Of a DNA stretch of 64,000 bases, positions 21,573-60,698 are shown piece by piece. Under the pieces are notes generated by a model, which was not told the DNA's origin, made no database searches, and worked only from the letters and a program-made list of their open reading frames with translations. The translations under genes and the position numbers were made by a program. The first letter of the stretch is position 1, and every line of letters starts with the position of its first letter. Origin of the DNA: Proteromonas lacertae (lineage: Eukaryota); contig NGBS01000599.1 of assembly GCA_002245135.1 (NCBI GenBank), forward strand, positions 62,001-126,000, read 5' to 3'.

Positions 21573-21844
21573 TAATCTATCTTGTTGTGCGCCATTTGTC
21601 ATAGTTGGCCATTTGTCTACCAGACACCTATAAAACAAACTAAATTCATATTCTTACTTTTCTTGATGAAAAATTGTTACTTTTATACTTACTTTGTCAT
21701 ATAACCTACATCTATGAGTAACTATTAATTGTCATAATATTGAATAAAAACTATCAAAATATATTCTAGAAATTATGTATATTCCAAATTTTATGTTTTT
21801 ATTGACATATAATGTCTAAATGAGAAGTGTCAGTTACACAGGAA

Positions 21845-21871
21845 TTAAGAATTATACCCCTTCTGACGTCA
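21845..21871 (+). promoter_or_regulatory. Conserved subterminal motif containing TGACGTCA
   Basis: 27-bp identity TTAAGAATTATACCCCTTCTGACGTCA with 59184-59210. Confidence 0.45.
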
Positions 21872-22169
21872 TTTTTAATTTAAAATTTCATTTTTTTCAA
21901 CTTTTTTGTTTGTATGTTTTTTTTGATTCAGTCAAAGAGAAAAAATGAATTTCAGCAGAAACTTTGAAGAATGTTATAAAATTTTATCAAGATAAGAAGA
22001 TATTTCAAAAAAGAAAAATCAAGCTTGTCAAACTTGACAGTTTTTTTTTTAATTTCAAGAATCAAAATGTATGTACTATATATATATATATATATATATT
22101 ATTATTATTATTATTATCAAAATACTTACTTTATATTATTTATAAACTGTATAATACTATCATGTACAG

Positions 22170-25100
22170 CGAAAGGTATAGAAGCATCATTATTTTATGA
22201 ACATAAAGTAGATGTAATTGATTTTGGTGATAAATTTATTAACAGATAAGCTGAAAGCGCATTTTAATAGAAAATCGAGGTTTAAGAAGTCAAAGATTAA
22301 CTAGGCCCAATTATAGAGTAGAAAAAATAATATATCAAATATACAGCAGAATAGTGTTGATTTAGACTTTAGGAGAAAAAATGTATTAATTAGAAGAAAA
22401 AAAGCTCAAGCTCAAGATTTAGATATTGGTTGAAGTACTCAAATAATATCAATGGATCCTGCTTATTTATCATTAGATATTGGTTGAAGTATCACTTACC
22501 AATGAAGGATCAATTAAACCAAATGTAATATTTACTCCACCAAGGTGAATTAGATATAGAAGAAAGTGTAACAATCGAAGTATCTTATACAAGTTCAACT
22601 CTTGGTGAATTTAGTGATCATTTTGAATTTGCATTAAAAGGAGCAACTAATAATGTGGTATTAACAATAAAAGGACATGTAGTTGGTCCAACATTCTTCT
22701 TTAATAAGAATAAACTAGATTTTGGTATTGTAAGTTATGCGTTTTTAAACTCAACTGATTTGATATTAAGAAATACTTCCTCTGTTCCATTTATATTCAA
22801 TTTACGAGTTCCTCAAGATGGTAATTACTTAAACAAAGAATTCGAAATAATTCAAGCAGTAGCAACAGTATTACCAGAAGGAGAAGAGAAAATCAAAATC
22901 AATTTCATATCTCAAACAATAAAAGTATATGATTATTGTTTAGCAATTGATATTGAAAGTGTAGATGAAGCTTTATTAACAATTCCAATAAGTGCTGAAT
23001 GTCGATTAGCTGAAGTAGAATTATTAGAAGAATCATTGAAATATGGAGATTGTTATTTAAGATATACTTATTATCGAACTTTAACATTAAAGAATAAATC
23101 CAATTTAAGTGTTCAATTTGAAAACAGAACAAGATGAAAGAAGTAAATCGATTGGTAGTTATTTCCCTGATCCAGTTAAAGGCGTAATTTGTCCAATGGC
23201 AACTCAAATGATTAAAGTTTAATTAAATTCTGAGAAATTAGGTGATATGAGAATTCCATTATATATTCAAATAATTGGCAGTCAATATCCTCCATTGGTA
23301 TTAGTATTAGAAGCAAATGGACTTGGACCAGTGATAAAGTCAAATTTAAATCATATAAAATTTGGTGATATAACTTGTTTAGATACTCATACAAAAGAAT
23401 TTACAATAACTAATCCAACTCCAATTCCAGCTTTTTATAAATTAGATTTTGAATGAGGATTTTATTTTAATACTGATATAGTTGATGGTATATTACAAAG
23501 TAAAGAATCTCAAAAGATAGTAGTTAGTTGCATGTTGGAAGATGTATTAGCTTATAAAGATACAATATACATAGCAGCAACTGAAGGAGATAGTGCAATT
23601 CTTCCAGTTACAGCTAAATGTATAATAACAACAATATTTTGAGAAGATCCAGTAGATGTAATTGATTTTGGTGATCAATTCACAAACAGAACAATCGAAA
23701 GAGTATTTTTATTAGAAAATCGAGGTTTAAGAAGTCAAAGATTAACTTGGATAAATCAAACTGCAGTAGAAAAAGAAAAATCTTTTAAAGCCAATAAATC
23801 AAAGATGGAAAGTGAAATGAATTCAAACCTTATGAAGCTATATTTACAATAACTCCCAATGCAATCGAATTAAAACCCAATACTGCTTGAAATTTTGTAA
23901 CATCTGGAAGTTGTGAAAAACCCTGTGAAGTGATGGAAATGTTTCTTGTTTGAGGAAATTTGATGGAGAAATAAGAAATAATGAAGCAAAAGAAACCGAA
24001 GTAAAAGTGAACTTTATGAATCCATTAATTCAATGTTCTGAAGAGAAAATCGAAGTTCAAAGTAAGACAGTTGTATTTAAGAATATATCAACATTGAGTT
24101 TAGATGCGATAATAAGTATAGCAGCTCCATTATTATTGAGTATGAATGAATTCCATTTAGAACCAAATGAATTAATGAATGTGACAGTGGAATTTGATCC
24201 AATATATAAAGATGATAAAATCTCATGTAAAATAAATGGAATATTGAATATAAGATATGAAGATCATCCTCAGAAAGATTCAATTCCATGTGTAGCTGAT
24301 GTTGCCTTTCCCAATTTATGGTTATCTCAAAATGATTTTGATTTTGGTTGTATATTGAATAATTCTCAAAGAACATTATTATTTTCAATTGAAAATCGTC
24401 GAACAATTCCTTGTCCTTATCATTGGGAATTAGAAATAGATGAAAACTGAAAATCAAACATCTCCAATCAATGAAGTATTTGAAATCACTCCAATTCAAG
24501 GTATTTTACAACTAGGTGAATGTGAAGAAATGGAATTGAGATATTCTGGAATACCACATGTATTATCAAGAGCATTGGGTAAATGTTATGTAGATGGAGG
24601 ATCAGTTTATAATATCAAAATGAAAGGTGAAAGTTCAGTCTTATCTTATAGATTGGATAAACAGAAAATTGATTTTAGTAGAATTCCTTATATGAAAGTA
24701 AAAGAAAGAGATTTTCATATATTTAATACAGGTTCAGTAGATTTTCCATTTAAAATCTCAACTGATAGTGTATCTCGACCTGGTTTAGTTGGTGTTTCAC
24801 CATGTAATGGATTAATTCCATCTCATGATCAACAAAGAATCCCTGTTAAAATGAGAGTAGGAATTCCAGATTCAGTAATAGAGAAATTAGTAATAGAAAT
24901 AGCTCATTATGTTCCAATAGATTTTCTACTTTATATAACAGGTATTTATGCAAATATCAAAGTGAATGATGCTGAATTGGTAATACCAGATAATTGGGAA
25001 CATTACTTGGAAGAAGCTGATAGATTGATTGAATTATCCAATACAGTACATCCATTATCATTCCCAGCTTTACCATCACCAATAAAACAACAACCATCTT

Positions 25101-27060
25101 TACCTAAAGTAGTAGAATCTTCAATAGATGAAAGTAATAATAACACTATTATAAATACTGAAGGAGAAGAAGCAAGACAACAACAACAGCCAGAACAACC
25201 ATCAACAGAAGAAGAAAAAGAAAAACCAGTTGAAGCTGAAAAGCCAATAATTGTAGATGGAGTTCCAGTTAATTCACCAACACATGGTTAAAAGAATTAC
25301 CACCAGAACCAAAAATTGAAGGAGAATTAGCACCACATAGTGAAGAACCAACAATAGCAAATACAAATGCAGAAGAAGAAAAATCTAAAGAAAAAGAAAA
25401 AGATGAAAACAAGAAACAGTAATCTGCAAGAGTAAATAGTCAAAAATCAGTTTCTGTCAGAAGTAAGAATTCACAACAGAATGATAATAAAATACCATCT
25501 CCACTTAAAATGATGACAAATACGAACAAATTACCTTCAGGAAAGAATACAACAGTATTACAAATCACAGTTGATAGAGAATTTGAAGCATTAAGATTAT
25601 AGTATATTGATTTATTATTAGATGAAATAAACAATCAAAATCCTGCTAATTTATGTTTAGCTCGAAAAGAGAAAGAATTAAATGTAACATCAATAAATGG
25701 TTCAAAAAGTGAAGGAGTAGTTGATAAAACCACAAAAACACCTGAAACTGGTTTAACAAATATCAGTAATAAAACAGGCAAAACAACAAAAATGGCGAAT
25801 AAGAAAATATATAATTTACATTTAGGTGAGTTTCCATTAGCTGATTATGTAGTAGATTTTGGTAATGTAGTTCAAATTGATTGCAAGACGAAGACATTTA
25901 CAATAACTAACATAGGTAATTTACCAGTGAATTTCGGAATAGAAAGAAGAACTTTAAAAGAGAGTGGATATACATTAACTCCAGATGAAGTGAAAAGATT
26001 ACCAGAAAGTTCAACAGTGACATTTACAGCTAGTATTACAGCGAAATCTGATTTACCTTATGGAAGATATGATTTAGCAATTCCAATCAAAGTACAAGGT
26101 GTACCAACTTATTGTATAATATAAAGATTATAATGTTATTCAAACTGAAGTAAGAAATGTAGGTGATAAATTGGCAGTGAAATTACCACCACCTGAAGAA
26201 CCAGAACCAGTAGTAGAAGAAAGATCAGCTTTACCTGATCCAAAGAAAGGAGGAAAAAGAAGTAAATTAATTGATAAGAAAGGAGATAAAAACTCATAGA
26301 AAGGTAAAAAAGAAAAACCACCACCACCTCCTCCTCCACCATTTGGAGTTGGTTTATTATGTGATATAATCAATAACAATGGTGAAAGTGATATTGATAT
26401 AATAATTCAAGAAATCAAAGAAACAGTTCCATTGTTTAATACATATGGAGATTGGAAAGTTCCACCTCCAGTAGTATTCCAATTAGTTAAGAAGCAAATT
26501 CCAAGAAAACCCTTAATATCAACAAGTAATTATAAATTAATAGATGAAAATAATGCCACAAGATGGAAATTAGAACCTGATGAAGAATTGCCATTGAAAG
26601 TGACATTTGAATAATTAGAAACTGGTAAATTTAACTATTGTTTCCACTTTGAGATAGTTAATAAAGATAAAACGTATGAAGTTCCAATCAGTGGTATTTG
26701 TGATTATCCAAAGATTAATCAAAATCCGAAAGATATACTTATGAAATCAACAAAACAAAAGAATGAACAACAAATAATAAGTAAGAGATAAATAAAGAAC
26801 AAAGGATATTATGAATTTGGTCAATTATTAATAGGCAAAAACATAAATATGAGAGAAAACAATCCATCTTTAAAAGCTAGTAATTGTGAAACAATTTAAT
26901 TCAGTAATAATGGAATGTTTTCTGCAACAGTTGATTTGTCAATGAAAAATGATGATGGAATATTCACAATAGAACCAACCCAAATCGATATTGAAGCAGG
27001 TGAAACTCAAACAGTAGATACTGGGGCATTTCCAGTAGAAAATATTCAATAAACAAAAGT
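22170..27060 (+). pseudogene. HYDIN: Internal fragment of HYDIN (axonemal central-pair protein), multiply disrupted
   Basis: Tandem ASH/Ig-like repeats (IKGHVVGPTFFF…LDFGIVSYAF, FPNLWLSQNDFDFGCILN, LADYVVDFGNVV); many in-frame stops and frameshifts; no 5' or 3' end. Confidence 0.85.
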
Positions 27061-27844
27061 TGAATGAAAAGATAGAAGAATTATTAAATACTGAGATGTT
27101 ATTCAAACTACCCATTACTCCATATCCCATATTTATACAATTTATAAACGTATAAGAGACTTTGTTTATGAAAATTCTAGTATATTATGAAGTGATTGAT
27201 AATTTCAAAGAGAGTTTAATATTAATTCAAAACTTTAAAGATAATTGCAATAACCAAGACATTTACATTAGATAATATCTTTATAAAGAATTTAGCAAGA
27301 TTTGAAGATCAATATGATGAGATAGTAGTTGGTGCCCAAGATGAAGCAAAGATTGAAAATATGATATGAGAAAGAAAAGAAATTAAATGAAAAATACAAA
27401 TAAAAAAATGAAAGTGGAATAGTGTTGATAATGGTTTTAGAAGAATTATAGTAGAATAAGATGATAATTATTCTTTCTTCTTCTAGAAATATTATTACCA
27501 AATTGATGAAAAATACATTTTCAATAATCAGAATTCATATAAATAAAAAGAATTATTGGTAAATTGTATTGAATGATTACTATAATAATACAACACATAT
27601 AACAATTGTAATGAATGATTAGTAAATTATTACATTGGTATAATTTAAAATAGTCAAAAGAAAAGAAAAAAGAAGATATATTTTTATAAATATTGTTACA
27701 CTTACGTCTTAAATAATGAATCATTATTTTTTTGGGGGGGTAAGAGTATTATAAAATAACACAGTAAAAAATCTATAAAAGCTATTCTATTACTATAATT
27801 TCTATAAATATATATCATTCTATCTATTCCTATTATATGAAATA

Positions 27845-27930
27845 TGAGAAATCAAAAGTGTCTCCTAGACAAACGGCGTGAGAAGATTTAGAAATACGCC
27901 GTTTGTCTAGGAGACATTTTTCACTTCTCA
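27845..27930. repeat. Short hairpin built from a TIR-like motif
   Basis: GTGTCTCCTAGACAAACGGCGT, 16-nt loop, ACGCCGTTTGTCTAGGAGACAT. Confidence 0.8.
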
Positions 27931-28599
27931 ATTTTCTTCTGTGACTTATGTGTATCATTTCATAATCATTGATACTATTATATAAAACTAAAAACAACAC
28001 ATAAATTATAATTCTGTAAATTATACAAAAGAAGCTAAGTGTTAAAAATATATTGTAATTAGCTACACACTGAAATGAATGATTTTTATAGAAGGCACTG
28101 AAATATGAAATACATTAATTTGTTGTAGCTTTGAGATTCATGTCGATTAAAGATTGTATTTCTGTTTATATTGTAGATATTAACTTTGTAACTAAAATTA
28201 TAGATTTTGATGAAAAACATGTGCATATAAAACAAGTGTTTATATCAAAATATTGATTTTCGTACAAATAAGGGGTAAGAAAATTCAAGTTTTTAGTTAC
28301 ATTTTTTTATTTATATCAACAACAGAAGCGAGTTGTAAGATAATATTTTATGTTATTCATGTACTTAATATGTATTAATAGATTATGTAAAAATATTTGT
28401 TACATAGACTAATTAAGTCATATCGTGACATGTCTATCATATACAAAATGTTAAAATAAAAGTAACAATTTTTCATTTAAAGAAGTGTAATTGTGTATTT
28501 AGTTTGTTTTGAAAGTGTCTGGTAGACAAACTACCAACTGTGACAAACGGCGCACAACATATCTTATTATTTGCTTTTTAAAATCTAATTAAATAACAG

Positions 28600-29493: not shown

Positions 29494-30348
29494 ATCAAGC
29501 TTTTTTGGGGTCGAGCTTTTCGTTTTTTAACAACAACTATTATACTTGAGGTCTATACAAATAGCTCATTTTATAGAGAAATATGTATATAAATTTATAG
29601 GTTTATCTATACGTCAAAACCTGTATCTTTAGTTTGACCTTTAACTTCTTTATACTAACTAATAGTTGAACTCCTATTGAACATGAGTTAACAAGCATAT
29701 TATCTAACCATAAATACAAATTTAAAGCTTTATGCATCATCTTTCAAATATCAAATTTGACTGTCGGTCGATACACTTTTTATATTACTATTATTTTGAT
29801 CAATTTCTCAATGATGACTCACAATAACATATTATTAACATAATATTAATTAATTATAGAATAAAAAAAATAAAAGAAAAAAACATCATGCTTGATGGTT
29901 TGAATAAGTAAATCTTTATTTTTTAAGATTTAGATCATTTAAATGTATAATTACTCAATATTTATAAGACTTTATAATATATGAAACTATAGGGATATCA
30001 CATTACCCCCTATCGCATCAAAAGAGTTGTGCATTTGTTCAATTGCTGCATGTTAAAGAAGTAAAATTTTAACTATTTAAAGTGTTTAATCAAATAATAG
30101 AGGAAGTAAAAAGAAAATTTCTACTTTACTATTTTCTTATTTATTTATTATTTCTCTATTATTTAAACTACAAATAAACTTTTGTTTATGATTATGAATG
30201 TTTATAAAGTCGTTAATTATTGTTAATTATTGTAATTCAATATATTAATTAGATATTATATTTTATCATTTCATTTTTAAATTGTAATAACGATATTGTA
30301 AAATAAAAGTGATTATGAATGAGGTAATTATTATATCGTTACTGAGAT

Positions 30349-31550
30349 TTAAAAACGATGTAAGGTATTCTTTTGGTAATTCTTGTAAAACTTAGCTTTT
30401 TCTTCCACAGTCAGTTTACTCATAGCAGAGAATAAATCTTCTATAAAATAATTAATATTAAAACTCTCTATATTCTGTATTTCATCTGTCCTTATGTTTT
30501 TCATTCTACATTCCAAATAAAAGAGGGTGTAATACCCACAATTCACTTTATCACGATTACTTTGTTTCACATTAGTTTCCATAATTTGGTAACTTAATTT
30601 TACTTTACTCTCAAAAAATCTGTATATTCTATAGATAATGTTATCTCTTGCATCATTATGATCCTCTCTATAAATGTTTAAGCTGTCATAGATATAATAT
30701 TTAATATATTTATTACTGTTATATTTAACTTCAAATAACGACCAATGTTGATAATCTTTGTCGCATACTGGAAAATATATATACAATCGTTCTTTATTTT
30801 ACTTAATAAACGTAACTGTTCATCACTTTTATATATATTATCTGGATCTATTACATTATCATTACACTGATTAATGAAGTGTATATAAAACACTAGATCT
30901 TCCGATTTTAATCACTCTTTTAATAATAGATGATTAACTATAATATTAAATTGTCTTTAGAAACAGTTCTTTTGTTTACCTTTTAGTGATATTGTATTAT
31001 AATTGTATGGATTTATAATTAATCTGACAAAATTTAATGTATTTTCTTCATTGCGTGAATAGAATAGAGAATCACCATCATCATCATCATGTATATTGAA
31101 GTAAAAACAGGACAACTTCAGTCTGTATGATTTATATTCTAATAGTTTAGAGATATATTCTCTTAGCAAATCGCTCATGAGAATAACATCTAACTCCAAT
31201 ACTTCAATATTGTTGTAATCAGAATTCATAATCATAAATTTCACAGTAGCAGCAATATCTGTCTTCTGGAAAATTGTTGCTAACATTAATTTTAATAATT
31301 ACATATTTACTTAGATTTGGAAGAGATATATATGAGGATAAGTATTTAAGATCTGTATTATAGTCATATATATTCATTGAATCATATATTTTAATCATCC
31401 CATTATCCTTTTCTATCATAATTAAATAGCATCGATGTGATTTAATTAATATACTCATACTTTTATTATTATATAATAACATATTGTTACTTAATAGATT
31501 AATGTCATTAAAATCATATAATTGAAGTATATACCATATCTGATAGGTAT
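30349..31550 (-). pseudogene. Ulp1/C48-like cysteine protease with two protease-like domains, frameshifted
   Basis: QHWSL…YIYDSL…KQSNRDKVNCGYY catalytic pattern in 30349-30786; a degenerate second copy (SHRCYL…IYDSMN) in 31219-31482. Confidence 0.65.
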
Positions 31551-31768
31551 TTGGAAAAGAAACAAAAGAAATAAATGAGTAGATTTTTTTATAATATATT
31601 TATAATAATCTAATATAAAAATAGTAGCTAAGAATAGATTATTTTTGTAAACTGTTAAAAATTGAATTATGTTGTGACGAAATTTGATGGCTTGATTGAC
31701 ACTATTTTTTATTTTTTAAAATTAACATTATTTTAGAAACATATGCATTTTGGCTAATACTATTATAA

Positions 31769-33677: not shown

Positions 33678-34314
33678 TGTTGTGCGCCGTTTGTCATAGT
33701 TGGCCGTTTGTCTACCAGACACTTTTAAAACAAACTAAATGTATATTCTTGCTTGTCTTGATGAAAAATCGTTACTTTTATACTAACTTTGTTATATGAC
33801 CTACCTCTGCAGTATACTTTTTTGTTAATATAAATAGTTTGAATATTTGCGCCGTTTGTTTTGTAGAAATTTTTGAAGCAAACTAAATGCATATTTAGCT
33901 AATATAAACTAAAATACATTAGCTAAAATGATTAGAATATAATAATTATTAAATCTTTCTATATAAAAAAGAAATGTAAAAAATAGGCTTGAGTGAGGCT
34001 TGATTCTATATTTTCTATTTTCATTTTAAATGTCTTATGATCAACATTAAGCGGTTCTAATCATTTCAGCTAATGTATTTTAGTCTATATTAGCTAAATA
34101 TGCATTTAGTTTGCTTCAAAAATTTCTACAAAACAAACGGCGCAAATATTCAAACTATTTATATTAACAAAAAAGTATACTGCAGAGGTAGGTCATATAA
34201 CAAAGTTAGTATAAAAGTAACGATTTTTCATCAAGACAAGCAAGAATATACATTTAGTTTGTTTTAAAAGTGTCTGGTAGACAAACGGCCAACTATGACA
34301 AACGGCGCACAACA
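33678..34314. mobile_element. Foldback MITE (subfamily A), 637 bp, TSD CAAGT
   Basis: Near-perfect 260-bp inverted arms (33678-33937 and 34055-34314); CAAGT at 33673-33677 and 34315-34319. Confidence 0.95.
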
Positions 34315-34461
34315 CAAGTGATTACTGTTTTACCTGTTTTCGAGTGTAATTAGATCTTGAATTATATTCAGATTACACTGCAATTTACCTGTTTTAAAAG
34401 TCATTTCTACAATTCATTGATAAAACTATAGATATATTTTTGTTTTAGAGTTATTTCTATA

Positions 34462-34738
34462 TTTTCTAAAGAGTAAAAACAATTCCCTGAACAAAAGTAT
34501 ATACTTCACAAACACATCAACATGTAATTCAGGATATGGATTAATGTATATTAATAATAAATGCGCAATAGAAGCTATAACAGATTATTACATATTAAGT
34601 AGATGTAAATTTTTAATTTTGACAAAATGTAGTTCTTTTAGTTTGGTTAGTTTATTTGCGAATAAAATAGGACATAAAAACCATAAAATGCACAAATATT
34701 ATGGTAACTGTAGTATTCATTCTAATTTATACAATTAA
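34462..34738 (+). pseudogene. 5'-truncated copy of the 20110-21069 fucosyltransferase-like gene
   Basis: Identical C-terminal peptide; the breakpoint is at 34462. Confidence 0.85.
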
Positions 34739-34811
34739 AATAATGCTGACATATAAAAGAAGAAAAACACTATATTCAATAGAAATATAGGTATTTGTCA
34801 TTAATAAAAAA

Positions 34812-35836
34812 CTATATTGGAGTTAAACTGCAATTATTAAAACTTAACTTCAAGTTATTTATCAAACCATTCTTTATTTCATAGCCTAAACCATTTATTC
34901 TATCAAGTAGTATACCAGATTTTAATAATGCTGTTAAACCAAATGTACTTTTAGAAATTATTAATAGATGAGATTTTGAAAGAATTTCATGTTCAATAAT
35001 TATTGTTGAATCTTTTCTATGATTTTTATAGTGATTAGTTATGTTAGTCGAATAAACTGATATTTCTTTGTATTTACTTTGTAAATTTATTTTTAGTTTA
35101 TAAGAATCAGCTGTAAAAAACCAATTTCTATATTCTTTGTGTTTTGATGCTAAATCAAGCATTATTTTTACATCATTTAGATCAGCAAATTGTTTTTCAT
35201 TTAAATCTTCATTTCCAAGTCTAATTTGTATTCCTAAAAATACTTCTTTATTAAAAGTTTGGATATATTTATCTACTCTTTTATTAATGAAATGTTTTAC
35301 CCTCAATAATTTTGTAAAAATTTGATGATAAATATAGAAAATTATATTACATAACTTTTTAGATTCATATAATGGAACATATATTATAACATTTTTAAAG
35401 AAATATTTGTCTTTTATTAATTCAACTAGAGTATCACACCAAATATATTGAAAATGAATGTTATTCTTTCTATTTATATTATTTAACTTCTTTATATAAA
35501 AAGGACATATTGAAATCCTTTCTACTTTTTCATACTTTTTCAATGATATATTATATTTATTAATATAGTAGAATAGATCAAATTCATTCCAATTTTCAAC
35601 TAGCTAAATATATATATTAATTTAATACTTTTAGGTTTTTTGTCAAAATAAATAGACATTAATATTATTCCAGCAAAAGACATTAGTCTATTTCCTAATC
35701 CAGCAATAGTATAAGTACTGATTGTGAAGATACTATTCTTATAAATACGATTTACAATGTTAATTAATTCAACATAATAATAATTATTATTTAAAAATAC
35801 TAATACAATAATTAAATATATAAAAGTATTTCTCAT
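34812..35836 (-). CDS. Fucosyltransferase-like protein, duplicate of 19012-20036
   Basis: Identical translation. Confidence 0.75.
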
Positions 35837-35936
35837 AATAAATTAATAATTTCAATGGAATAAAAAAAGAAAATCAAGTGTAAATATAAAACTTTATTTT
35901 CATTATAATATCTATCTTTTTCTTATATTATTATAT

Positions 35937-39838: not shown

Positions 39839-39843
39839 ATTTA

Positions 39844-44821: not shown

Positions 44822-46261
44822 GAGTATTATTCTTGAATGTAATATTTGCAACCCTTATCAATATTGCAAAAAATGAATATTTTTGTGTTGAGGTATAGTT
44901 ATGCAATCAATTTATTTTTTGATATATTTAACAATATTAGGAGTTAAATAATGTTTATCAACATAAACAATATCATTATTTATTATGTATGTACATTTTT
45001 TGTTAATACACAAATGTTTATTCATATCACATTTTCTTATATTTTTATGATTAAAGAAGATAAATCAGATATAGCACAATTTACTCCTAATATAGCAAAT
45101 GCGGATTATCATTTATAGCTACTATGTTATTGCTAAATTTCAGTAAATGTTTTTGGAGATGAATATAATACTTATTGAAGTTGTTAATAAATCTCTCACT
45201 ATTTTTAAACTCATAACTATATTTAAAGCTACACATTATTATTAGCTTAATATTTTTATTTTTTTCTATTGCTGATAATATATGATCTATTCTAAATAAT
45301 GATATATCCTTTTCTGCATTAAAATATATGATATTATATATACCGCATATTCATTGATCTTTATGAGAGTCTCCTATTAACAGTATTTTGGAGCAATTAC
45401 TTTGATTAACTACAATTTTACATGGATATTGAATAAGATATTTTTGAAAATTGTATATACAAATTAATGAAATTTTTGATTTAGACCTAAGGTTCAAATT
45501 TTGAACCTAGGTTTAAAATCTTTCTTCTCCAAATTAATTACTAATTAAGAAGACTATAATTAATTATAATACTAATTAAAATGTATATACAAAGTGTGAA
45601 TAATAATATGTATTATTACACAAAAATATCGCTGCATTATGAAATTAAGTAAATAAAATTGAACTATAGCCAGAAATATTAATTTCTTTCTTGAAATGAA
45701 TAAAATATGAAATCAAGAATTGATACAACCTTGGTAATAAGCAGTAATAACAATATATATTATCATTATCAATATTGTAATAATTTAGTGTAGAAGATAA
45801 TATAATTAGAAATACAATAATATTTTTTAAAAATCTAAACACTAATGTTAATAGTATTATAATATAGAATTGATATTCCAATGATAAGCTCTAATAGTAT
45901 TATTAATATAGAAAAGGTGAAGGATTATCATAATTATGAAAATAGTCTGTGTGTTTTATGTAGTAATAATCATTTAATTTAAAAAATAGTATAGAACTCA
46001 TATCAAAATAATGAACTATATATTTTCTACAAAAGAGAACTATAAAAAGAGATTAAAAAAATAGCCTTTTGCTATTTCTAACTATATATTCAACATTATA
46101 AAAATTGTGTCTCTTCAGATTAGGTAATATGTAATTATATTAAGAAAACTTGTAACTATCAGTAATATATCTACACCTAAATATCCACCTTGGAAAATAT
46201 CTATATTATAATGATATAATATGATTAAATCATAGAAATTCATCTTAAAAAATATATATCA
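44822..46261 (-). pseudogene. Degraded OafA-type acyltransferase, duplicate of 8330-9770
   Basis: Mirror of 8330-9770. Confidence 0.7.
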
Positions 46262-46313
46262 TATCTTATTATCAACTAATAACATAAAATGGTTGAATGA
46301 AGATTTAATCACA

Positions 46314-47114
46314 ATGATTTTATTTAAATATATTACTTTTATTGTTCTGTTGATAATATTAGTAATAATTATTAGATCTATATTTTACAATAGCATCAAT
46401 TTGAATAATATTAATAAAAATATTACAAACTATACATTATTAAATGATATGTCTGTCTTATTATCAAATTGTAATATAACTAACATTATGCGATATAATA
46501 TAACCAATAAAAAAGAATATGTTAATTATATGAACTATTTATCATGTGAATGTAAAGGAATAGGATACTGGGGTGGATTTTGTTTAAAAAAAGATAAAAT
46601 ATATGTAGGTGGTAACAACGTTCATGATAGTAGCTTGTCTATTAAATTACAAGATTTGTTTAAAGATAAGACAGTAATAGATCTTGGATCTGGTTTGGGT
46701 TGGTATTGCCCTATAATATCAAAGAAAGCAAAGAAATGTGATGAGTATGATGGTTCAGTGAATATTGAAGATATTACAAATGGAAAAGTGAAATACTTAA
46801 ATTTGGCTGAACCAATACAATTTCAATGCAATTATGATATAGTAATGTCAATAGAAGTTGCTGAACATATTCCAAAAGAATATGAAGATATATATATTAC
46901 TAACTTAATAAAATGTTGTAGAAAAGGATTATTAATAACATGGAGTAAAATAGGTCAACCAGGACATTTTCATGTAAATAATAGAAATAGAGAGGATGTA
47001 ATAAACATATTTGAGAAAAGGGGCTTAAAATATAATTATACTATAACATATACACTTAAAAATGCTACTAAAATATGGTGGTTAAAGAATAATATACTTT
47101 ACTTTTCCAAGTAA
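46314..47114 (+). CDS. SAM methyltransferase, duplicate of 7477-8277
   Basis: Identical translation. Confidence 0.85.
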   Translation: MILFKYITFIVLLIILVIIIRSIFYNSINLNNINKNITNYTLLNDMSVLLSNCNITNIMRYNITNKKEYVNYMNYLSCECKGIGYWGGFCLKKDKIYVGGNNVHDSSLSIKLQDLFKDKTVIDLGSGLGWYCPIISKKAKKCDEYDGSVNIEDITNGKVKYLNLAEPIQFQCNYDIVMSIEVAEHIPKEYEDIYITNLIKCCRKGLLITWSKIGQPGHFHVNNRNREDVINIFEKRGLKYNYTITYTLKNATKIWWLKNNILYFSK

Positions 47115-47261
47115 TTAATAATTTACTCTTATACATTATTTTTAGTAAATATTATTATTTTCATTCAATTTTCGCTTGCTTTCTAATTTTATAAAAGTAT
47201 ATTGTAATATTAATTTTAAGATTTGTTTTATTCAATTATATGAATTAATACAAAATATAAA

Positions 47262-49075
47262 TTAATAGTTAAACTTGGGTAATTCTACAAATCCAAACAT
47301 ATTGTTTCTGCCCATTTTCATTGTGATGAATTTGTAATACTTTATAATATCATTATTATCTTTTGAAATGTATATAATGTTTAGTGCAAAACATAATATT
47401 TCCTTATTATATCCTTTTTTTAATATTTTTGATAATGCTTGATTAATTAGTCTATGTATTAATATTGATTTGCACACATATAATTTATTTAAATGATTCA
47501 TATCCTTAAAAATCACTTTTGTGAAGATTCTATTTAAACAAGATTTATTACCATTACAATAGCTTAGAAATATATTTATATAAATAATTCTTTTATCATT
47601 TATTATTGGTAATAAATCTTGCCTGCATATTGTGTCATTTAATCTAAATCTATGAGGATTATCTTGAAATATAATTATTCCATCTGTTTTGTTAATAATG
47701 TTTTGTATAAAGAATTTAAAACCTTCTTCAAATTTATATTTATTTGTAAAAAGAAATTGATAGTCTACATACAATGATATTAAACACAAATTTATTCTCT
47801 TTATATTATGAAGGTAATTAGTTAATTGTTTGAAATTCTTTTCTAAATTAATAATCCAAGTTTGTATATATAATATTTTATCTATTTTATAATTACTCAA
47901 TAAATTAATTATAACAGATAAATACTGATCTAGATGAGAATCACCTATTAAAATCAGTGTTTTATCATTAAATACTACATTATTTATATTATAATTACAC
48001 TTTTTAGGTGTTGTACAAAATTTGTTATTGTTGTTTAAAATATTCATTTGATTTCTTTCAATAACTTTTATTGATTTTAATAAAGATACTAAAACAATAA
48101 AAGTAATTACAACGCACAAAGAGTTTATATATCTGTAATAATAAATATATCTCAATGGTAACTCTAAATATGTGTATAAAATGTATGAAATCAAAAGAAG
48201 CTTAATTATTATAATAGAAAGACTATTATTGTTGCGAATAATTGGATAATGAAATAAATATAGAATATAAGACATACTTCCAATTTTATCTAATATTCTG
48301 CTTCTAAATAACTCATCATTCTTTCGTATTAATAGTTGTGAAGTTAATATTGTAGGTAATAGTGCTATAAAACCAGGAAATTTCATTCTATTGAATATTC
48401 CAATTATATATGAAGAAATAATTAAAGAACAAACTATGACTTTTGATTCTAAATAGCAATTTAAATTCGCTTTGCTTACTATACATCCTAATAGTATTTC
48501 CCATGCTCTGTTACTAAGCAAATAATATGATGATGGATTATTTAAATATGTTGATATTATACATTTTATAAAGCTTATTCCAAATAATAGAATGATTATC
48601 TCAATCACATTATTAAAATGAAAATAGAAATAAGGATATATAAAATAAAATTGTTCTTCAAGTGATAATGACCAATAGTTTAGAATAATTGGAAGATTTT
48701 CACTTTGAAAATAGCTGAATGTTACTTTGTAGTATCTAATATTTGAAATACATAACAAACAAGAAATAATATCATAATAATGTCTTATTTCATTGTAGCT
48801 ATTTTTATCAATTGTAGGATGATAATAATAATAGCATATCAAACAACAAATACTGGAAGGAAATAGTCTTTTTATTCTTCTTGAATAGAATTCAAAAATT
48901 CCATTGTATGATTTAGTGAATTTAAATAAACTAAGTGTTATTATATAGCCAGATATTACAAAAAAAATATCTACACCTATAAAACCACCGGGAATATAAT
49001 TACTGTTATAATGATAAATAAAAACTAAAAAAAAGCAACAGATCTTAATTCTTGTATATCATTTCTATAATTCAT
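47262..49075 (-). CDS. OafA-type O-acyltransferase, duplicate of 5516-7329 (same homopolymer frameshift)
   Basis: Identical translation; A8 run at 49027-49034. Confidence 0.85.
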
Positions 49076-49095
49076 GACATAGATAATTAAAATAG

Positions 49096-49713
49096 ACAAT
49101 TATTATTCCTTATTTTATTCTTTTATTTATATTATATTATGTATATACAAATAAGTTATATCATTATGAATTAGTCATAGCCTTCATATCGTGCAACAGA
49201 TTATTTTATCTAAATTTAAGTATTATAAGTATATATAATCATTTCAATGATTATGATAAAAGAATGAAATATACTATAATAAATATTGATCAAGGTACTC
49301 CTAACAGAGAATTTTTATTTTCATATTATAATCTTAAAAATATCTTTTATTTAAACCCAGCAGGATATGCTAATTCTTTTCGTTTGTTATTTTCTTATTT
49401 ATACAAAAAATATATTCTTATTGTAGAAGAAGATTGGGTAATAATGAAGAACATAGAAAAGAGAATTAAATTTAGTAATTTTTTATATACAAGTATTATG
49501 ATTCTATCAAATTCAGATTATATATATGGTTTGTATTTAAGACATCATCCCAAAGGCAACTCTACAAAAAGAAAGTATAAAAAGCTGAATATAACTTATT
49601 ATGAAGTAATTCAACCTTGGAAAGGATTTTGTTACACAAATGGTGCATCAATTTATAAATCAATTTATTTAAAGAAAATGGATTATGCAGGTTCTGAGTT
49701 TCAAACTATTTGA
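49096..49713 (+). pseudogene. 3'-truncated copy of the GT2-like gene
   Basis: Reads …GSEFQTI* instead of …GSEFQTARRC…; the breakpoint is at 49707. Confidence 0.75.
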
Positions 49714-49747
49714 TCTTATTTTTTGTATTTGAGTATAACTTGTGATG

Positions 49748-50013
49748 GAGTGTTAAATTCACAATAATATTCATATATTTTGTTTATGTTCATTTGCTCT
49801 TATGTTCTACACAAAAAGATCATGAAAATAATATAATATATTTAAGATAAATGACTTTAAATATTAGAATATGAGATTTATACAAAGTAGTTTATATCAC
49901 TAAATAAGGGTATATTCATATAGTTTAGATCATTGCAAAAACTATGGTGGTATTAGTTTTTGATGAAAATCATTAATCTCATATAGGCTCATTTTTCATA
50001 TTGGCGCACAATA
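49748..50013 (-). mobile_element. Right end (TIR) of a subfamily D element
   Basis: Reverse complement reads TATTGTGCGCCAATATGAAAAATGAGCCTATAT…AAACTAA; imperfect inverted match to 51335-51578. Confidence 0.7.
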
Positions 50014-50345
50014 AACGTTGCACAGAAATTTTCCAACTCAATCTAGATGGTGTTTCAAAATCATATATTAAGATAATATTCATAATGAAATGATTTTCAT
50101 TACTATTTTTGTTTTTTGTTTTTGGACCATATGTTTAGCACTAACAGTTGCTATCCACATTTGTACAGCTCATATAGCAACCAAAACCCTTATCCTGTCA
50201 AACCGTTACATACAAATGGTAAGCTATCACATGCAATATATTAATCATGGAGAACCGAATATTGCACATTCAGCAAGCTTCGTATGAAGACCAAATGTCA
50301 AACCAAGCTGCCCAATATCAATCTAGCTTATGACTAATAAATATA

Positions 50346-51103
50346 ATGTATTTAAATAATCCAAACAATAGAATTAATCACAAAATTTACTCAATTAAAC
50401 ATATAAATCAAATAAAAATAGAAAGTAATTTATATCCTAGATTATGGAGTTGTTTATATAGAATAGAAGATGAAATTCATAAATCTTCATATCATAGTCA
50501 ATCTGGTGAAGATAAATTATTCTATGATACTAATTTTAAAAATAAATTAAATGGTAAATATGTAGAATTAGGTGCATTAGATGGAATTATGTTTAGTAAT
50601 ACATATTTTTATGAACATTACCTTGGATGGTCAGGTATTTTGATTAAAGGAGGATATGATAATTATCTTAAGCTTATTATCAATCAAAATCAAAGGCCTA
50701 GATCTCAAATTATATACAGAATTTAAAGCTTCAGGAGCAGTAGGTGGAATAACAAAAGAATTACCACCTAATTGGTTTGAATTGGACAAACAACAATCAA
50801 TCATAAAATCTGTATTAGCAACCTTTTAAACATTCACAAAATCAGTCATATAGATTTCTTTTCGTTAGATGTTGAAGGTTCAGAATTAAATGTATTAGAA
50901 ACATTTTATTTTACATATATGTACATTTTTGGACAATTGAATTTAATAGCGATAAAGAATATAAAAATAAAAAGGTAAGACAAATATTATCTAAAAATGG
51001 ACTTACTCAATGTTTATTAAAATTGAGAAATAACAATGAGTGTTGGGAGGATAAAAAGTATGAAAATAAAGTACAAGAGGTAATTGAAAAAGAAAATATT
51101 TAA
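50346..51103 (+). pseudogene. FkbM-family methyltransferase, broken
   Basis: SQSGEDK, YVELGALDGIMFSNTYFYE…LGWSGILI; HIDFFSLDVEGSELNVL lies downstream of a stop or frameshift. Confidence 0.8.
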
Positions 51104-51334
51104 AGATCAAATTTTAGTGTTAAGTGTTAAAATTATTTATTATAACCTATGTTTCTTTACATATTTCTTTAAATGTTGCTAAATTTCATATTACTTGTAC
51201 CAGCCATCAAGTTTTGCATTTCTGTAACGACTCTTTCCTAAAACCATATTTTTTGTTGCAAAAACTTATTCGAACATCAAGCTCTTATTTTTTGATTTAT
51301 AATTCCTCATAAAATTTCATCTCATAAACACACA

Positions 51335-51578
51335 TATTGAGCGCCAATATGAAAAATGAGCCTATATTAGATTAATGACTTTCTTCAAAAACTAATACAA
51401 CCATAGTTCTTTCAATGACCTAAAATATATTAATATAATATTGTATAAATCTTATATTCTGATATTTAAAGTCATTTATCTTAAATATTTTTTACTATTT
51501 TCATTATCTTTTTGTGTAGAACATAAGAAAAAATGAACATAAACAAAATATTAGATTATTATTGTGATTTTAACACTC
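51335..51578 (+). mobile_element. Left end (TIR) of a subfamily D element
   Basis: TATTGAGCGCCAATATGAAAAATGAGCCTATAT…AAACTAA. The adjacent 51575-51668 resembles 29953-30040. Confidence 0.7.
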
Positions 51579-51855
51579 AATATTTATAAGATTTTATAAT
51601 AAATGAAACTTTAGGGATATTACATTACCTCCTTTCGCATCGAAAGAAGTTGTGGATTTATTCAATTATAAAATGTTTCATTAAAATATTAACTACTTCG
51701 AAATGTTTTGGAAAAACGTTATTAAAATAAAATATTCAGATTTTTACATATGGTCGATGAACTATTTCTTTTCTTAGATATAAACTTCATAATACAAAGG
51801 ACTGTTATAAAGAAATTCTTGAAAAGGCATAAGAATTGTATATCTATTATACAAC

Positions 51856-51916
51856 TGTTGTACGCCGTTGGGAGATTTGCGCCGTTGGGAGATAAAAGAC
51901 TTTTATTTAAAACTAA
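51856..51916 (+). mobile_element. Left end of a subfamily C element (partner end not in window)
   Basis: TGTTGTACGCCGTTGGGAGATTTGCGCCGTTGGGAGAT…AAACTAA, with the same spacing as the other ends; preceded by ACAAC. Confidence 0.7.
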
Positions 51917-53499: not shown

Positions 53500-55141
53500 C
53501 AGTGTTTTGCAACTTACTTATACAATATTTCATAATACTTATACGTAACGACATTTGTTGCAAAATAGATATACAAATCTCAAGCCTTTTCAATAATTTC
53601 TATTCTTTTATTTTACAATGAGCTTATATTATGTTGATACAACACAAACAATACAATTATTAAATATTCATAATATAAATTCTTTTATAATAGGCAAGAA
53701 GTATGGATAGAGCGTTATATATCTATCCTCTTCATAACAGTCCTTTGTATTTTGATATTTATATCTTCAATAGTACTAAAGCATTCAGCTGGGCTGATTG
53801 TAGAAAATGCATTGGTTATACTTTCAAGTGTTTGATTTCTGTTCTGGTAAATAGATGTTTCAGCCCTTTTTTTCCATATACCAAAGATATTTTCTATTGG
53901 GTTAAGAGGACTGGAGTATTTAGCATTGAATAAGAGTTTATTACCAGATCCTTCAATCAGCATTTTAACCTGATCTGAATGATGGATATTTACAATGTCC
54001 ATAAAAAAGCAGAATTTACCCTTTGATTTTAGATCATCTAATAAGTATTTCAAGTATGTTGTAAATACCTCAATACTATTTGGTCCGTAAATGACATCAC
54101 ACCTATGAAAACCTAAATCACTCATAGTAGCTATAATTGTAATATCAGTAGCACCTCTAGCCATATGAACGATTGGTGTTGTTCCTTCGTCAGACCTTGC
54201 ACGTCCATTTACAAGTCCCATACTTCAATGGGTTTCATCTAAGTAAATTGGACGAAAACCATGTCTAGTATAGTATATTAATAATATAATAACTTCTATT
54301 CTTTCCTCTAGTAATGTTGGAATCATTTCTGGTGGAGCTGCTCTGGAATTGTAACGCTTTAAGGTAATGTTCTTACAGTTGTATTCTGTCATTCTTTTGT
54401 TGAGATGTGAAGATTTTTTCTTTTAAACCATTTAAATTGATAGTGTTGTTTTCTTTTACAGTATTTGAAAGCAATAATGACTCATGTTCTGTTAACTTAC
54501 TGCAACGTCCTCGTTTAACGAACTTTTATCAATACACTGCCCTTTATTAAGGAGTCTAATCAATGCTTCTAACCTTTTTGGTTTAATTCCTGTAATTGAT
54601 TGATATGACTGTAAGAGATATTCTCTTCCTTCTTTAGCATATACACGCTTCAGAATATCTATTTGTGTCTGCGATACACTAACATATACTTTTTTTTCCC
54701 TAACTGGCTGATCTCTTTGCTCATGTGTTGGCTCAGCAACATTTGTTATTTCTAATAACTCTTCGTTAGTTAAAAACTCTTCTGGATTTGGCGCCAAAGC
54801 TTTATCACCTTTAGGAACAAACTCTACTGGTGGAGCTGATTGTATATAGTCATTGCGACAATATGAATTGGTTGTATCAACATAATATAAGCTCATTGTA
54901 AAATAAAAGAATAGAAATTTGTGAAAAGGCTTGAGATTTGTATATATATTTTATTTTGCTATTATATATATGTAATATGAAATGGCTTGATAAAAAGTAT
55001 AAGTAATATGCAAAATGGTATAATAGTTATGCAATGGCGTGAATGATTTTTTTTGTTATGCAACGTGGTATATCTATTTTGCAACAAATGTCGTTACTAT
55101 AAGTATTATGAAATATTGTATAAGTAAGTTGCAAAACACTG
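53500..55141. mobile_element. Tc1/IS630-superfamily transposon, 1642 bp, TA TSD
   Basis: Termini CAGTGTTTTGCAAC…GTTGCAAAACACTG flanked by TA (53498-53499 and 55142-55143); transposase inside. Confidence 0.92.
53715..54896 (-). pseudogene. DD34E transposase with stops and frameshifts
   Basis: YLDETH*SMG, FFMDIVNIHH, YSSPLNPIENIFG (34 residues between D and E); broken between 54221 and 54492. Confidence 0.85.
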
Positions 55142-56073: not shown

Positions 56074-56931
56074 TTATTCCGAATCGCTGGGATAACTTGA
56101 TGAATCAGTGGACTCATCATCGCTGCTATAGGAAATGAGGTGATCATATTTATTATTGTGATTATAGCTATTATTACTATTATCTCTAATTCTACTATCA
56201 AAATTCACTCTAAATTCATGATTATATAAATCGATATATAAAAATGAGTGATTACTCTGTTTAGTTGCATAATCATAATATGATTTGAAAACATCAAAAT
56301 CGATCCATATATCTAAACTTGCATACAAATTTCTTAAATTAGCCATACTCAGGTTTTTGAATACTAAACAATAATCAAGCTGTAAACGAACTGAGGGAGT
56401 AATGTCAGTGACATATTGACTTGATATAATTACTTTTGACTTGTAATGACGGTTTGACTTAAGTAATTTTGAAACGGATTTATTTCTTAAATCGAATGAT
56501 ATATCATCGAATATAAATATATTCTCTGGGTAATCATAATTATCTTTGTCTATATCTTTGATATTATCTAATGCTGCATCCAATATATTGACTCTATCTT
56601 CATTCACTACTGAATCATAGCAATGGTACTTAATTTGGTTATACTTGAGCATATCAGTGATTTTCTCATATATGATATCCTTAAATATGGTTGCAACGAA
56701 AAAATACACTACTTGGTCATATCCGTTTTTTAGCAAGTGTTGGATCATATTAAATATAAGTGTAGTCTTACCACTGTTTTTCTTAGCTAAAATAAATATG
56801 TTGCAGAAAGGCTCCTGAAAATAGTCATATCCAAGGACACTATCTTTGGAGCGTTTTCCACATCCTTTGACTACTGTCTCAACAGGATTTATGACTATGT
56901 TGTTTATTTTTTCTAAATTAACTTTACTCAT
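56074..56931 (-). CDS. A32/FtsK-HerA-like genome-packaging ATPase (Polinton/PLV/virophage type)
   Basis: Walker A AKKNSGKTT, Walker B FIFDD, arginine-finger motif NRHY, ISSQY. Confidence 0.88.
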   Translation of the reverse strand: MSKVNLEKINNIVINPVETVVKGCGKRSKDSVLGYDYFQEPFCNIFILAKKNSGKTTLIFNMIQHLLKNGYDQVVYFFVATIFKDIIYEKITDMLKYNQIKYHCYDSVVNEDRVNILDAALDNIKDIDKDNYDYPENIFIFDDISFDLRNKSVSKLLKSNRHYKSKVIISSQYVTDITPSVRLQLDYCLVFKNLSMANLRNLYASLDIWIDFDVFKSYYDYATKQSNHSFLYIDLYNHEFRVNFDSRIRDNSNNSYNHNNKYDHLISYSSDDESTDSSSYPSDSE

Positions 56932-56989
56932 AACAAAAATAACAAAAACATAATTATAAGAAATATAGCCGTTATCGATATTATTATGA

Positions 56990-58920
56990 TTATTTAAAAA
57001 CTACACTTACAATACCACTTCCATTAATAGTGACCCTACGTCCAGTGATGATATAGAAACGATGAGATATATCATTATTAGTAAAGTCATTTTTACCAGG
57101 TGTTGAAAATTCAAAGGTTATTTTCAAATCAGTAGCCAAAGGTCTACCTGCCTGGTTCTTAATGTTGTCCAAATCCTTAGAGCCAAAATTCAATATCTCA
57201 AAGAACTTGTCATTGAATTTTTCATCTTTTCTGAATATATCATACCATGAGTCTTGGAAATATTCACGGACAGTCATGAAGCTATCATAATATTGCATAA
57301 GTGTATAATCTGGCTGATATACAAAATCATTGATCATCCATCTGAACTGTGCATTTTCAGGTATATGTGCATATCTTTCTAGAGCTTCTATCCATGGCCT
57401 ATAGATAATGTAACGAACAAATGGCCCATTGGAACTATTCAATGTGAATGAATAATTGAATATGCCAGAACCATGTGATGGTATTTTAATTTGATGACAT
57501 CTGAAATCATTGAATTGAATAGGTTTTGATAAGCAGTATTGTTTGGTATTATTGTTGCATTGAGTATCCTTGTTGATATAGGCATAGAATTTGAAATTCT
57601 TGAATATTGCTTCATTTATATCAACTTTTGCATGTGACACTGTATAGTTTACAATATCTTTTGTTTGATCATTTTTCATTCTTGCATATTCACCTGGTGT
57701 ATATGATTTTAATAAACCATAATTACTTGTGGTTTGAAAACGAATGCATATATACATTCTCTCTCCAAAGAATACATCACTCTTTAATGCAGCAAATGTA
57801 TTGTAAAATTTACCTAATTGTAATTTGAAATGTAATATAACTGAATCTTTATACTGAACTGCATATGCTGTTGCTGAAGATGCACTAGTATTAGTTTTTA
57901 ATTCAACATATTGTGTATTTGGTTCTACTTTCCACTTATTGATATCTTGGACTTTATAATTATGATTATCATCATCTCAATCTAATTGTATTCCATCATA
58001 GTAATTTTCTTGATAAAAAATATCAGATCTCTTTCTAACTAATTCATCCATAAATACACGATATGGTTCATATGAATCATCAAGCTTGACCAGATCTGTT
58101 CCAGTCTGATTACAAATTCTAAAAGAGGCCAAGCCAAACCCTTCTTTAATTCCTTTTATCATACTCGGATATAAACCTTTACCGACTAAATTACCAGTAC
58201 TACCATCGGTTGCATAGGTACCATCAGGATAAGGATTTAATTTTACTTCGATATCGAATTGGATATACGACTTAGCTAAATTGATAATATTATCTCCACT
58301 TATCTCCCATCTAATCTCTTCTGAATAAGTATTTGTATCCAACTTGTATTCTGATGTTGATCCCATCGGAGACATGTTGTTCCCCGTTGAGTACAACTCC
58401 CCGTTGAGCGATTAGAGACTTTAGAAACAAACTAAATGCATATTCTTACTTATTATGATGAAAAATTGTTACTTTTATACTTACTTTGTCATATAACCTA
58501 TGTCTGCAATATACTTTTTTGATAATTTTAGTATTGTATATATGAAACGCATTTATTTTTATTTTTCGTTTTAGTGTTTCATTCACTACTACAGACTAAA
58601 ATACATTAACTAGTTATGCAACGTGGATGAATTATCTAAGTTAATGTATTTTAGTCTGTAGTAGTGAATGAAACACTAAAACGAAAAATAAAAATAAATG
58701 CGTTTCATATATACAATACTAAAATTATCAAAAAAGTATATTGCAGACATAGGTTATATGACAAAGTAAGTATAAAAGTAACAATTTTTCATCATAATAA
58801 GTAAGAATATGCATTTAGTTTGTTTCTAAAGTCTCTAATCGCTCAACGGGGAGTTGTACTCAACGGGGAACAACAAGACAATCTCACATAATTATAGAAG
58901 GGTAGCATCACAAGGACATC
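56990..58920 (-). pseudogene. Putative double-jelly-roll major capsid protein, interrupted by a MITE, one TGA and a 5' insertion
   Basis: Removing the MITE plus one TSD and reading through the TGA at 57977-57979 gives one ~474-codon frame (YVRLSPMG…IRWEISGDNIINLAKSYIQFDIEV…); adjacent to the packaging ATPase. Confidence 0.65.
58375..58875. mobile_element. Foldback MITE (subfamily B), 501 bp, TSD AGACA
   Basis: 237-bp inverted arms (58375-58611 and 58639-58875), 27-nt loop; AGACA at 58370-58374 and 58876-58880. Confidence 0.95.
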
Positions 58921-59567
58921 TGTTGTTCCCCGTTGAGTACAACTCCCTGTTGAGCGATTAGAAACTTTAGAAACAAACTAATTACATAATGTTATTACTC
59001 ATAATGAGTTATGAAGGGATATAATGTTACCTTGTCATATAAGCTACTTTTGTGAGTAAAAAAATAGTGTCATAATATTGAGAAAAAAACTACATAAATG
59101 AGTGTTAGAATTAATTTATATTTCATATTTTATGTTTTTATTTTAATATGATGTCTAAATAAAAAGTGACAAAATTTAAGGATTTAAGAATTATACCCCT
59201 TCTGACGTCAGTGTTTTCACACAAACTTTCTCAAACTACATTCATTTCATTTTTTTGATTTTAAAACTATTAAAATAGTTTATATTATTGTAATTTAAAT
59301 AATATATATGTATAACCGTAAGAATATCACTGTAGGTGGGTAAACCGTACCAGACTATTCTTAGGTGCCTTCTACAGGTAAGAATAAGCGATTTGAGTGT
59401 AAATTAGTTTTTGGTACGGGTTATACTGGAGGAAGCGGTGAATTTAAATTTCTTTATATATTTTAGTGTATGAGTAATTTTATGGGTTAAAATTTTTTCT
59501 TTTGTTTTTTGTATATAATTTCATTAACTTTTTCTTATTGTTATTTATCAATCATAATTTCAAAAGA

Positions 59568-60634: not shown

Positions 60635-60698
60635 CTTTTGGTTTAAAATTCATTTTTATATTTCTATGCGTTTTTATATATAAATAATTTCACATAAT

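Follow-up and report, generated by a model that had tools for sequence, protein, structure and literature searches.

Ten element ends with subfamily-matched twin cores in Proteromonas lacertae: a putative integrase-mobilised family, probably derived from a Polinton-like virus

What moves the DNA that lies between ten look-alike element ends in a contig of the protist Proteromonas lacertae, and why does each end carry a motif twice? The stretch in question (contig NGBS01000599.1, positions 62,001 to 126,000; 64,000 nucleotides, hereafter the window) has a GC content of 24% and zero N, and its intron-poor genes include glycosyltransferases, acyltransferases and pieces of HYDIN. On balance, we lean towards reading the ten ends as the terminal inverted repeats (TIRs) of one family with four types (A to D) that would be mobilised by an integrase and is likely to be derived from a Polinton-like virus (PLV); the twin motifs, or cores, would then likely be binding sites of subfamily-specific integrases of the rve type. 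The features are collected in Table 1.

Table 1. Positions and properties of the features in the window (MITE, miniature inverted-repeat transposable element; TSD, target-site duplication; ORF, open reading frame)
Feature	Position	Strand	Details
Complete Pack-type element with A ends	21583..28559	.	6,977 bp; TSD TATCT; 113-bp TIR
Left subterminal region of the A Pack element	21689..21871	+	78% over 187 bp to 59027-59210 of the B element
Two internal A-type cores of the A Pack element, inverted relative to each other	27839..27936	.	fold z-score -11.3
Complete A-type MITE	33678..34314	.	637 bp; TSD CAAGT; 260-bp TIRs
D-type end, interior leftward	49745..50013	-	TATTG; 38 bp from the 15.3-kb duplicated host segment
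D-type end and subterminal DNA	51335..51708	+	TATTG; 51575-51708 also matches 29953-30087 (81%)
C-type end, unpaired	51856..51916	+	beyond it lie decayed pieces resembling dynein and a biotin carrier, and a Tc1-like insertion
A32-type packaging ATPase, PLV copy	56074..57000	-	open frame
Broken double-jelly-roll major capsid gene	56990..58920	-	stop at 57977-57979; B MITE and B element inside
Complete B-type MITE in the capsid gene	58375..58875	.	501 bp; TSD AGACA; 237-bp identical TIRs
B-type element, left end	58921..64000	+	left flank ACATC; runs off the window; four ORFs and integrase
Intact rve-type integrase	62569..63729	-	386 aa; predicted triad D77/D140/D177; no HHCC motif

The end layout and its TSDs are a real and well supported feature. 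All ten ends lie where the original prediction had placed them, align without gaps and share one layout: an 8-bp terminus beginning T(G/A)TTG, 17-bp units starting at nucleotides (nt) 9 and 26, and AAACTAA at nt 55-61. As both ends of each MITE are identical, the ten ends comprise 8 distinct sequences, and in all eight the best repeat lag is 17 (8-10 of 10 matches; any other lag between 12 and 23 gives 5 at most). The pattern T[AG]TTG-N3-[GC]CC-N43-AAACTAA, which was derived from these same ends, has ten matches in the window and none in any of 60 first-order Markov simulations of 64 kb. When a profile was built with a whole subfamily left out, each omitted end still ranked in the top 10 of 127,878 positions; with the full profile the ends score 57-84, and the next-best score (16.3) belongs to two internal modules of the A MITE.

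The three complete copies have the perfect 5-bp TSDs that had been predicted (chance of a match 2.4e-3 for TATCT and 8e-4 each for CAAGT and AGACA), and with the captured HYDIN pieces they establish that MITE and Pack derivatives exist. The ends are also of the rve/DDE type, as proposed, with a TG start in eight of the ten and 5-bp TSDs; the more specific claim of TGT...ACA termini fits only those eight, because both D ends begin TATTG. TG termini and 5-bp TSDs have been reported for rve-type elements (PMC2836005, PMC10045372, PMC12220804; papers are cited throughout from those parts of their text that were available). The second repeat is degenerate at nt 26-28 in the end at 28559, although not there alone, as had been thought: it is also broken at 58921 (CCT). 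The TIRs extend beyond 61 bp, with identities of 81% over 113 bp in the 7-kb A element, 99% over 260 bp in the A MITE and 100% over 237 bp in the B MITE; the two D ends match each other over about 269 bp at 83%. These D ends (50013 and 51335) face outward and have no common TSD, the end at 50013 has no partner with a common TSD within the window, and the ends at 51856 (C) and 58921 (B) have no partner inside it. For four end types from one window, the label 'superfamily' was too strong. A role of the ends as hairpins was rejected because they fold no better than shuffles (z-scores of -0.37 and +1.04). Between 49700 and 64000 there is no credible Rfam match (3 matches, E values of 0.5-0.7) and no tRNA.

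The cores differ between subfamilies in both repeats at once, as had been proposed. With unit positions 1-10 taken as the core, one representative of each of the four subfamilies was compared with every other (six pairs): repeat 1 shows 27 differences, of which 20 are found in identical form in repeat 2, while the spacer (positions 11-17) shows 28, none of which reappears there; the border between core and spacer was chosen after inspection and the six pairs are not independent, which tells against taking these counts at face value. Two cores of the same end agree at 8-10 of 10 bases, and cores of different subfamilies at 3-7. Along their arms the A and B MITEs share homology, and yet only 18 of 34 positions (53%) agree at nt 9-42, compared with 42 of 49 (86%) at nt 62-110 and 46 of 60 at nt 111-170; the putative sites are thus the fastest-changing part of the TIR. 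Further A cores outside the tandem (33851, 34141, 27877 and 27898) are confined to A elements; those at 33851 and 34141 are the third core that each arm of the A MITE carries at nt 174, followed 29 nt on by AAACTAA as in the end itself. Slippage of the 17-bp unit is therefore an insufficient explanation, and a selected protein site fits the distant internal cores better; judged by these sequence patterns, the cores appear to behave as selected, subfamily-specific sites. What is new here is the combination of concerted core differences, cores that diverge faster than the surrounding TIR and off-tandem cores that match their own subfamily.

The B element is the candidate autonomous member. It is ~88% coding between 59568 and 63729 and has four ORFs besides the integrase; the part in the window (58921-64000) holds no polymerase or helicase gene. 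The whole element may be a virus or a derivative without a capsid. Its integrase belongs to a large rve family (P0001 and P0128-P0276) in which, among 126 members of at least 300 aa (24 shorter matches were dropped), D77 is conserved in 124 and D140 in 125; the third catalytic position is mostly D (95), sometimes E (20) or N (11). The HHCC pattern is found in one of the 126, which is not the window protein. In a 40-member alignment 28 sequences match Pfam rve and 26 weakly match the IS481 model, for which the window protein lies far below the cut-off. The 60 PDB matches listed of 131 are all retroviral or Ty3 integrases, with the third D of the family aligned with their catalytic E, and the Atlas neighbours are rve clusters of viruses and eukaryotes. 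The window integrase groups with 11 others in a clade (FastTree support 1.0; tree rooted at the midpoint) whose core identities range from 26 to 71%, which means that there are several divergent integrases; 10 of the 11 others were looked up, and all come from Logan assemblies. The A type is tied to the integrase-bearing element by the sequence that the A Pack element shares with it (Table 1).

Several other observations concern this element. The motif TACCCC+TT occurs four times in the 64 kb (21855, 28277, 59194 and 61130), lying ~275-285 bp inside three ends and once upstream of a B-element ORF; TGACGTCA follows it at 21864 and 59203. It is possibly a promoter motif. Near the B left end, a GC-richer segment picked by eye (59325-59445) contains a long hairpin (z-score -2.25; no Rfam match), and the 196-aa ORF at 60044-60634 has two CxxC motifs and weak PHROG matches.

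The proposed assignment to a PLV lineage held up in part. In its favour are the intact integrase behind the end at 58921 and distant relatives on PLV or virophage contigs: a search with more distant family members found three among 25 candidate viral-contig stretches, and all three carry PLV/virophage genes (L030 an SF1 helicase, an A32 ATPase and an adenain-like protease; L031 a protein-primed polymerase; L032 Sputnik-type capsids). Viral contigs gave no relatives with the integrase alone (0 of 12 stretches) or with the close alignment (0 of 131), and genome contigs gave 0 of 78. A link to the neighbouring capsid and ATPase genes, which lie outside the integrase element, is not supported. The ATPase has 150 homologs with up to 88% identity, many of them with PF04665 (Pox_A32), and the capsid has eight (416-484 aa). 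In the homologs, the residues from 27 on correspond to 58375 down to 56999, with one stop within, residues 14-28 map to 58920-58876 (score 50.5, next best 28.0), and residues 1-13 are not found in the window. Both B insertions therefore lie within the capsid gene, 45 bp apart, the MITE near codon 27 and the B element near codon 13; either local hopping or target preference would account for their proximity. As the B element interrupts the capsid gene, this gene and that of the ATPase would be parts of another virus copy, itself broken, which perhaps begins at the C end: they lie 4.2 kb inside it, with host-like fragments and a Tc1-like element between. A single-sequence fold of the capsid fragment was unusable (predicted local distance difference test score, pLDDT, of 31). 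The model of a 63% identical homolog (P0277; pLDDT 63) has the mavirus capsid as its best PDB match (E = 1.2e-11), and in BFVD it matches a 'MELD virus sp.' protein (E = 6.8e-13, 10% identity). The capsid alignment found no relatives on viral contigs (0 of 124), and five ATPase loci, 31-35% identical, had no integrase-profile match and no such ends in their stretches.

A number of points weigh against a PLV-derived, integrase-mobilised family, in addition to the reservations on the core counts given above. An integrase gene is linked to just one of the ten ends, the far end of that element is beyond the window and a rearrangement between 59210 and the integrase is possible; none of the 138 homolog matches lies outside that one ORF, so that types A, C and D have no integrase in the window. 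In the integrase, no domain for sequence-specific binding of DNA was recognised. By its position the capsid/ATPase module appears not to be part of the integrase element. The three viral-contig integrases are just 24-27% identical to the window protein and come from a virus-only collection, and their contigs show no end of this layout; L030 does start with TG, but a nearby 25-nt probe has a single match in the contig, so no TIR is demonstrable. At its left end the A Pack element is a patchwork: nt 62-110 resemble the B MITE (45 of 49) and nt 111-170 the B element (45 of 60), and recombination has therefore been at work. The D ends start with TA, and vertebrate Mavericks have AGT/AG-repeat ends and 6-bp TSDs (PMC8097293), which differ from the TGTTG/TATTG starts and 5-bp TSDs seen here.

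Against these stand the resemblances to PLVs, virophages and Polintons (mavirus and other endogenous mavirus-like elements, or EMALEs; cryptophyte and Halocafeteria PLVs; Tlr1; MELD). These share an rve integrase without HHCC, TIRs of 100-300 bp, nested elements and, as neighbours, an A32 ATPase and a double-jelly-roll capsid, and the 5-bp TSD falls within the 3-6 bp reported for PLVs and EMALEs (PMC12220804, PMC8547959). The ends also agree with the PLV pattern of TIRs of at least 100 bp and TSDs of 4-6 bp (range from PMC12220804). Polintons/Mavericks in the strict sense have an rve-type integrase and a protein-primed DNA polymerase B; the former is present here, in the B element alone. PLVs are 14-40 kb long with a replication gene, and the B element runs off the window before its far end. 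In contrast to PLVs and Polintons, the locus has TG/TA termini, tandem subfamily-specific cores, a D-D-D triad, 0.5-kb MITEs, a Pack element with host gene pieces and a capsid lacking relatives on the viral contigs searched, and no polymerase was seen at 58921-64000.

One alternative assigns the ends to a stand-alone cut-and-paste transposon of Ginger2/TDD or IS481EU/IS3EU type with its transposase elsewhere, and treats the B element as a Pack copy carrying viral genes, the integrase included. TGTTG fits the Ginger terminus TGTNR, which together with a 4-5-bp TSD is found in eight of ten ends and all three complete copies, and TDD-4 and TDD-5 of Dictyostelium have 5-bp TSDs, TIRs of 260-297 bp, non-autonomous copies and an integrase-type enzyme (PMC2836005). 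The Ginger2 transposase, however, has an H2C2 zinc finger (PMC2836005), which the integrase here lacks, and the B element has further ORFs. The mixture of TG and TA resembles the TA..TA or TG..CA termini of IS3EU/GingerRoot and the TNT..AYA of IS481EU, groups that likewise occur in protists and, like Polintons, lack HHCC (PMC10045372), and the weak matches of 26 of the 40 integrase homologs to the IS481 model point the same way. IS481EU TSDs are 4, 15 or 25 bp and those of IS3EU 6 bp, and both groups have TIRs mostly shorter than 50 bp, a single ORF and a first D at 100-300 residues (PMC10045372); here the TSD is 5 bp, the TIRs are 113-269 bp and the first D is D77. These ends do carry captured DNA, which counts in its favour; yet the HYDIN, dynein-like and biotin-carrier cargo is broken, whereas the B region is largely coding and its integrase is intact. 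No other rve gene was seen among the 34 ORFs scanned, and the TACCCC+TT sites near three element ends and one B-element ORF argue, weakly and post hoc, against this alternative. We regard this alternative as unlikely.

Judged by sequence features, the family would fall outside Tn7 and IS481EU and, on account of its integrase, outside Ginger2 as well, and the likeness of its ends to those of Tn7-like elements and CRISPR-associated transposons (CASTs) of type I-F3 is one of analogy. CAST ends have an 8-bp TGT terminus, TnsB sites of ~18 bp, 5-bp TSDs and compatibility groups defined by those sites (PMC9723613), matching the start, the spacing of ~17-18 bp and the site-defined groups seen here. 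The host here is nonetheless a eukaryote, there are two terminal sites instead of three or four, no TnsA, TnsC or TnsD was seen, and neither an accessory ATPase of the Tn7/Mu kind nor a TnsB/MuA transposase was found, the latter being absent from the 60 PDB matches listed of 131. The plasmid and phage collections gave no match. Mutator-like elements (MULEs) were considered for the nearby Ulp1 protease gene and the Pack cargo, since Pack-MULEs and MITEs are likewise non-autonomous TIR elements, with host gene pieces. MULE TSDs are typically 9-11 bp and their ends G...C, and the candidate was set aside on TSD length and termini (5 bp and TG/TA here).

It is also conceivable, although quite unlikely, that the elements are PLV-derived and that the cores are replication-origin or promoter sites, bound by terminal protein-polymerase, a helicase or another viral protein, with no more than the terminal few bases being read by the integrase. 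Retroviral integrases recognise only short end sequences, and the adenovirus core origin lies at nt 9-18, the position of the first core here. In adenovirus inverted terminal repeats this core origin is bound by terminal protein-polymerase and accompanied by host-factor sites (PMC2685984). The internal cores, including the inverted pair, would need no role in integration. On the other side, MITEs of ~0.5 kb keep the cores perfectly, as expected for transposition sites, and the window part of the B element has no gene for such a polymerase or helicase. That the cores have no matched protein partner and are end variants homogenised by conversion or slippage, with 42-bp terminal modules swapped onto TIR backbones, is improbable: the mosaic TIRs and a G-to-A change shared by both repeats at 21583 (subfamily A) could reflect conversion, but only the first 9-13 bases of the 17-bp unit are homogenised (0-3 of 7 spacer bases are identical), the repeat spacing is fixed in all ten ends and the distant internal cores match their own subfamily.

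The best reading, by analogy with these systems, is thus an undescribed integrase family of PLV/Polinton type with MITE and Pack derivatives, whose ends would work like a Tn7/CAST end placed on an rve-type element. In rve chemistry the ends are cut at a terminal CA and joined to the target in a staggered manner. Both cores, lying behind the 8-bp terminus, would be bound by integrase subunits, which would cleave after the terminal CA and link the ends to the target 5 bp apart, giving the 5-bp TSD. AAACTAA, common to all of the subfamilies, may bind a shared factor or bend the DNA. The MITE and Pack copies retain their ends and would use the integrase in trans. If the specificity of an integrase changed, all cores would come under selection for the same change, and compatibility groups like those of Tn7-like CASTs could arise. 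A more far-reaching picture, which we put forward only tentatively, is that a eukaryotic virus-type (PLV/Polinton) integrase lineage has come to recognise its ends sequence-specifically in the manner of TnsB, and that four or more orthogonal integrase-end pairs coexist in one genome, each with MITE and Pack parasites of its own; they would insert into one another's capsid genes, inactivating them, and would duplicate host gene clusters as large as 15 kb. To our knowledge, end recognition by Polinton and PLV integrases is essentially unknown, and this locus combines an integrase that is intact (386 aa) with four natural variants of the end, whose twin cores match, and with substrates as small as 0.5 kb. 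Should this specificity prove true, a retroviral-type integrase would have converged on the Tn7/CAST end code, the integrases would be candidate orthogonal enzymes for large cargo, and virus-derived MITE and Pack elements would be documented as gene-capture agents in a protist genome.

A degenerate version of the end pattern retrieved two viral-contig and 22 metagenome-contig stretches, all 24 of which were rejected as chance matches (profile scores of at most 21.8; repeat identity of at most 7 of 12, versus 8-12 in the window ends), and a stricter pattern found none in prokaryote genomes. Non-autonomous Polintons exist in Repbase. Our search of the literature turned up no account of ends with this layout, nor of MITEs derived from PLVs whose cores are subfamily-specific, although Repbase, Dfam and supplements outside the search may hold the ends. 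Nested PLVs and TIR-bearing fragments (bioRxiv 10.64898/2026.07.28.741278), MELD viruses with an integrase in a gut stramenopile (PMC8502044) and turnover of PLV end modules (PMC11296320) have been described. Endogenous PLV capsid genes have been catalogued in many protists (PMC10120064); Table S1 of that paper has five rows with counts for gut flagellates, so the virus copy in the window may already be listed there. The available parts of PMC11161782, PMC5499653, bioRxiv 10.64898/2026.06.19.733378 and 10.1101/2025.02.07.637071 have no bearing on the end layout.

The remaining features are cargo and neighbours. The A Pack element carries broken HYDIN/CFAP65-like gene pieces (HYDIN Ig-like domains, E values down to 1e-15). 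Immediately before the C end lies a fragment of a Tc1/IS630-like relative (51811-51855); beyond it the dynein matches are weak (E = 0.03) and the biotin-carrier-like piece matches Biotin_lipoyl (E = 5.5e-5). The Tc1/IS630-like element itself (53500-55141) has a TA duplication, TIRs of ~80 bp and a broken DDE_3 transposase (E = 1.5e-14). Between the outward-facing D ends is a broken FkbM-type methyltransferase gene (50014-51334), and a D-type subterminal remnant without a TIR, followed by the Ulp1 protease ORF (30349-30798, E = 3.3e-7), occupies 29953-31599; it may be the decayed left part of a ~20-kb D element ending at 50013. A 15.3-kb glycosyltransferase/acyltransferase cluster is present as an inverted duplicate (4884-20392 and 34455-49707; 99.96-99.99% identity). 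Its second copy is ~250 bp shorter, is cut within ORFs at both ends and stops 38 bp from a D-type TIR; the duplication represents a recent large capture, a transposon-driven rearrangement or an assembly artefact.

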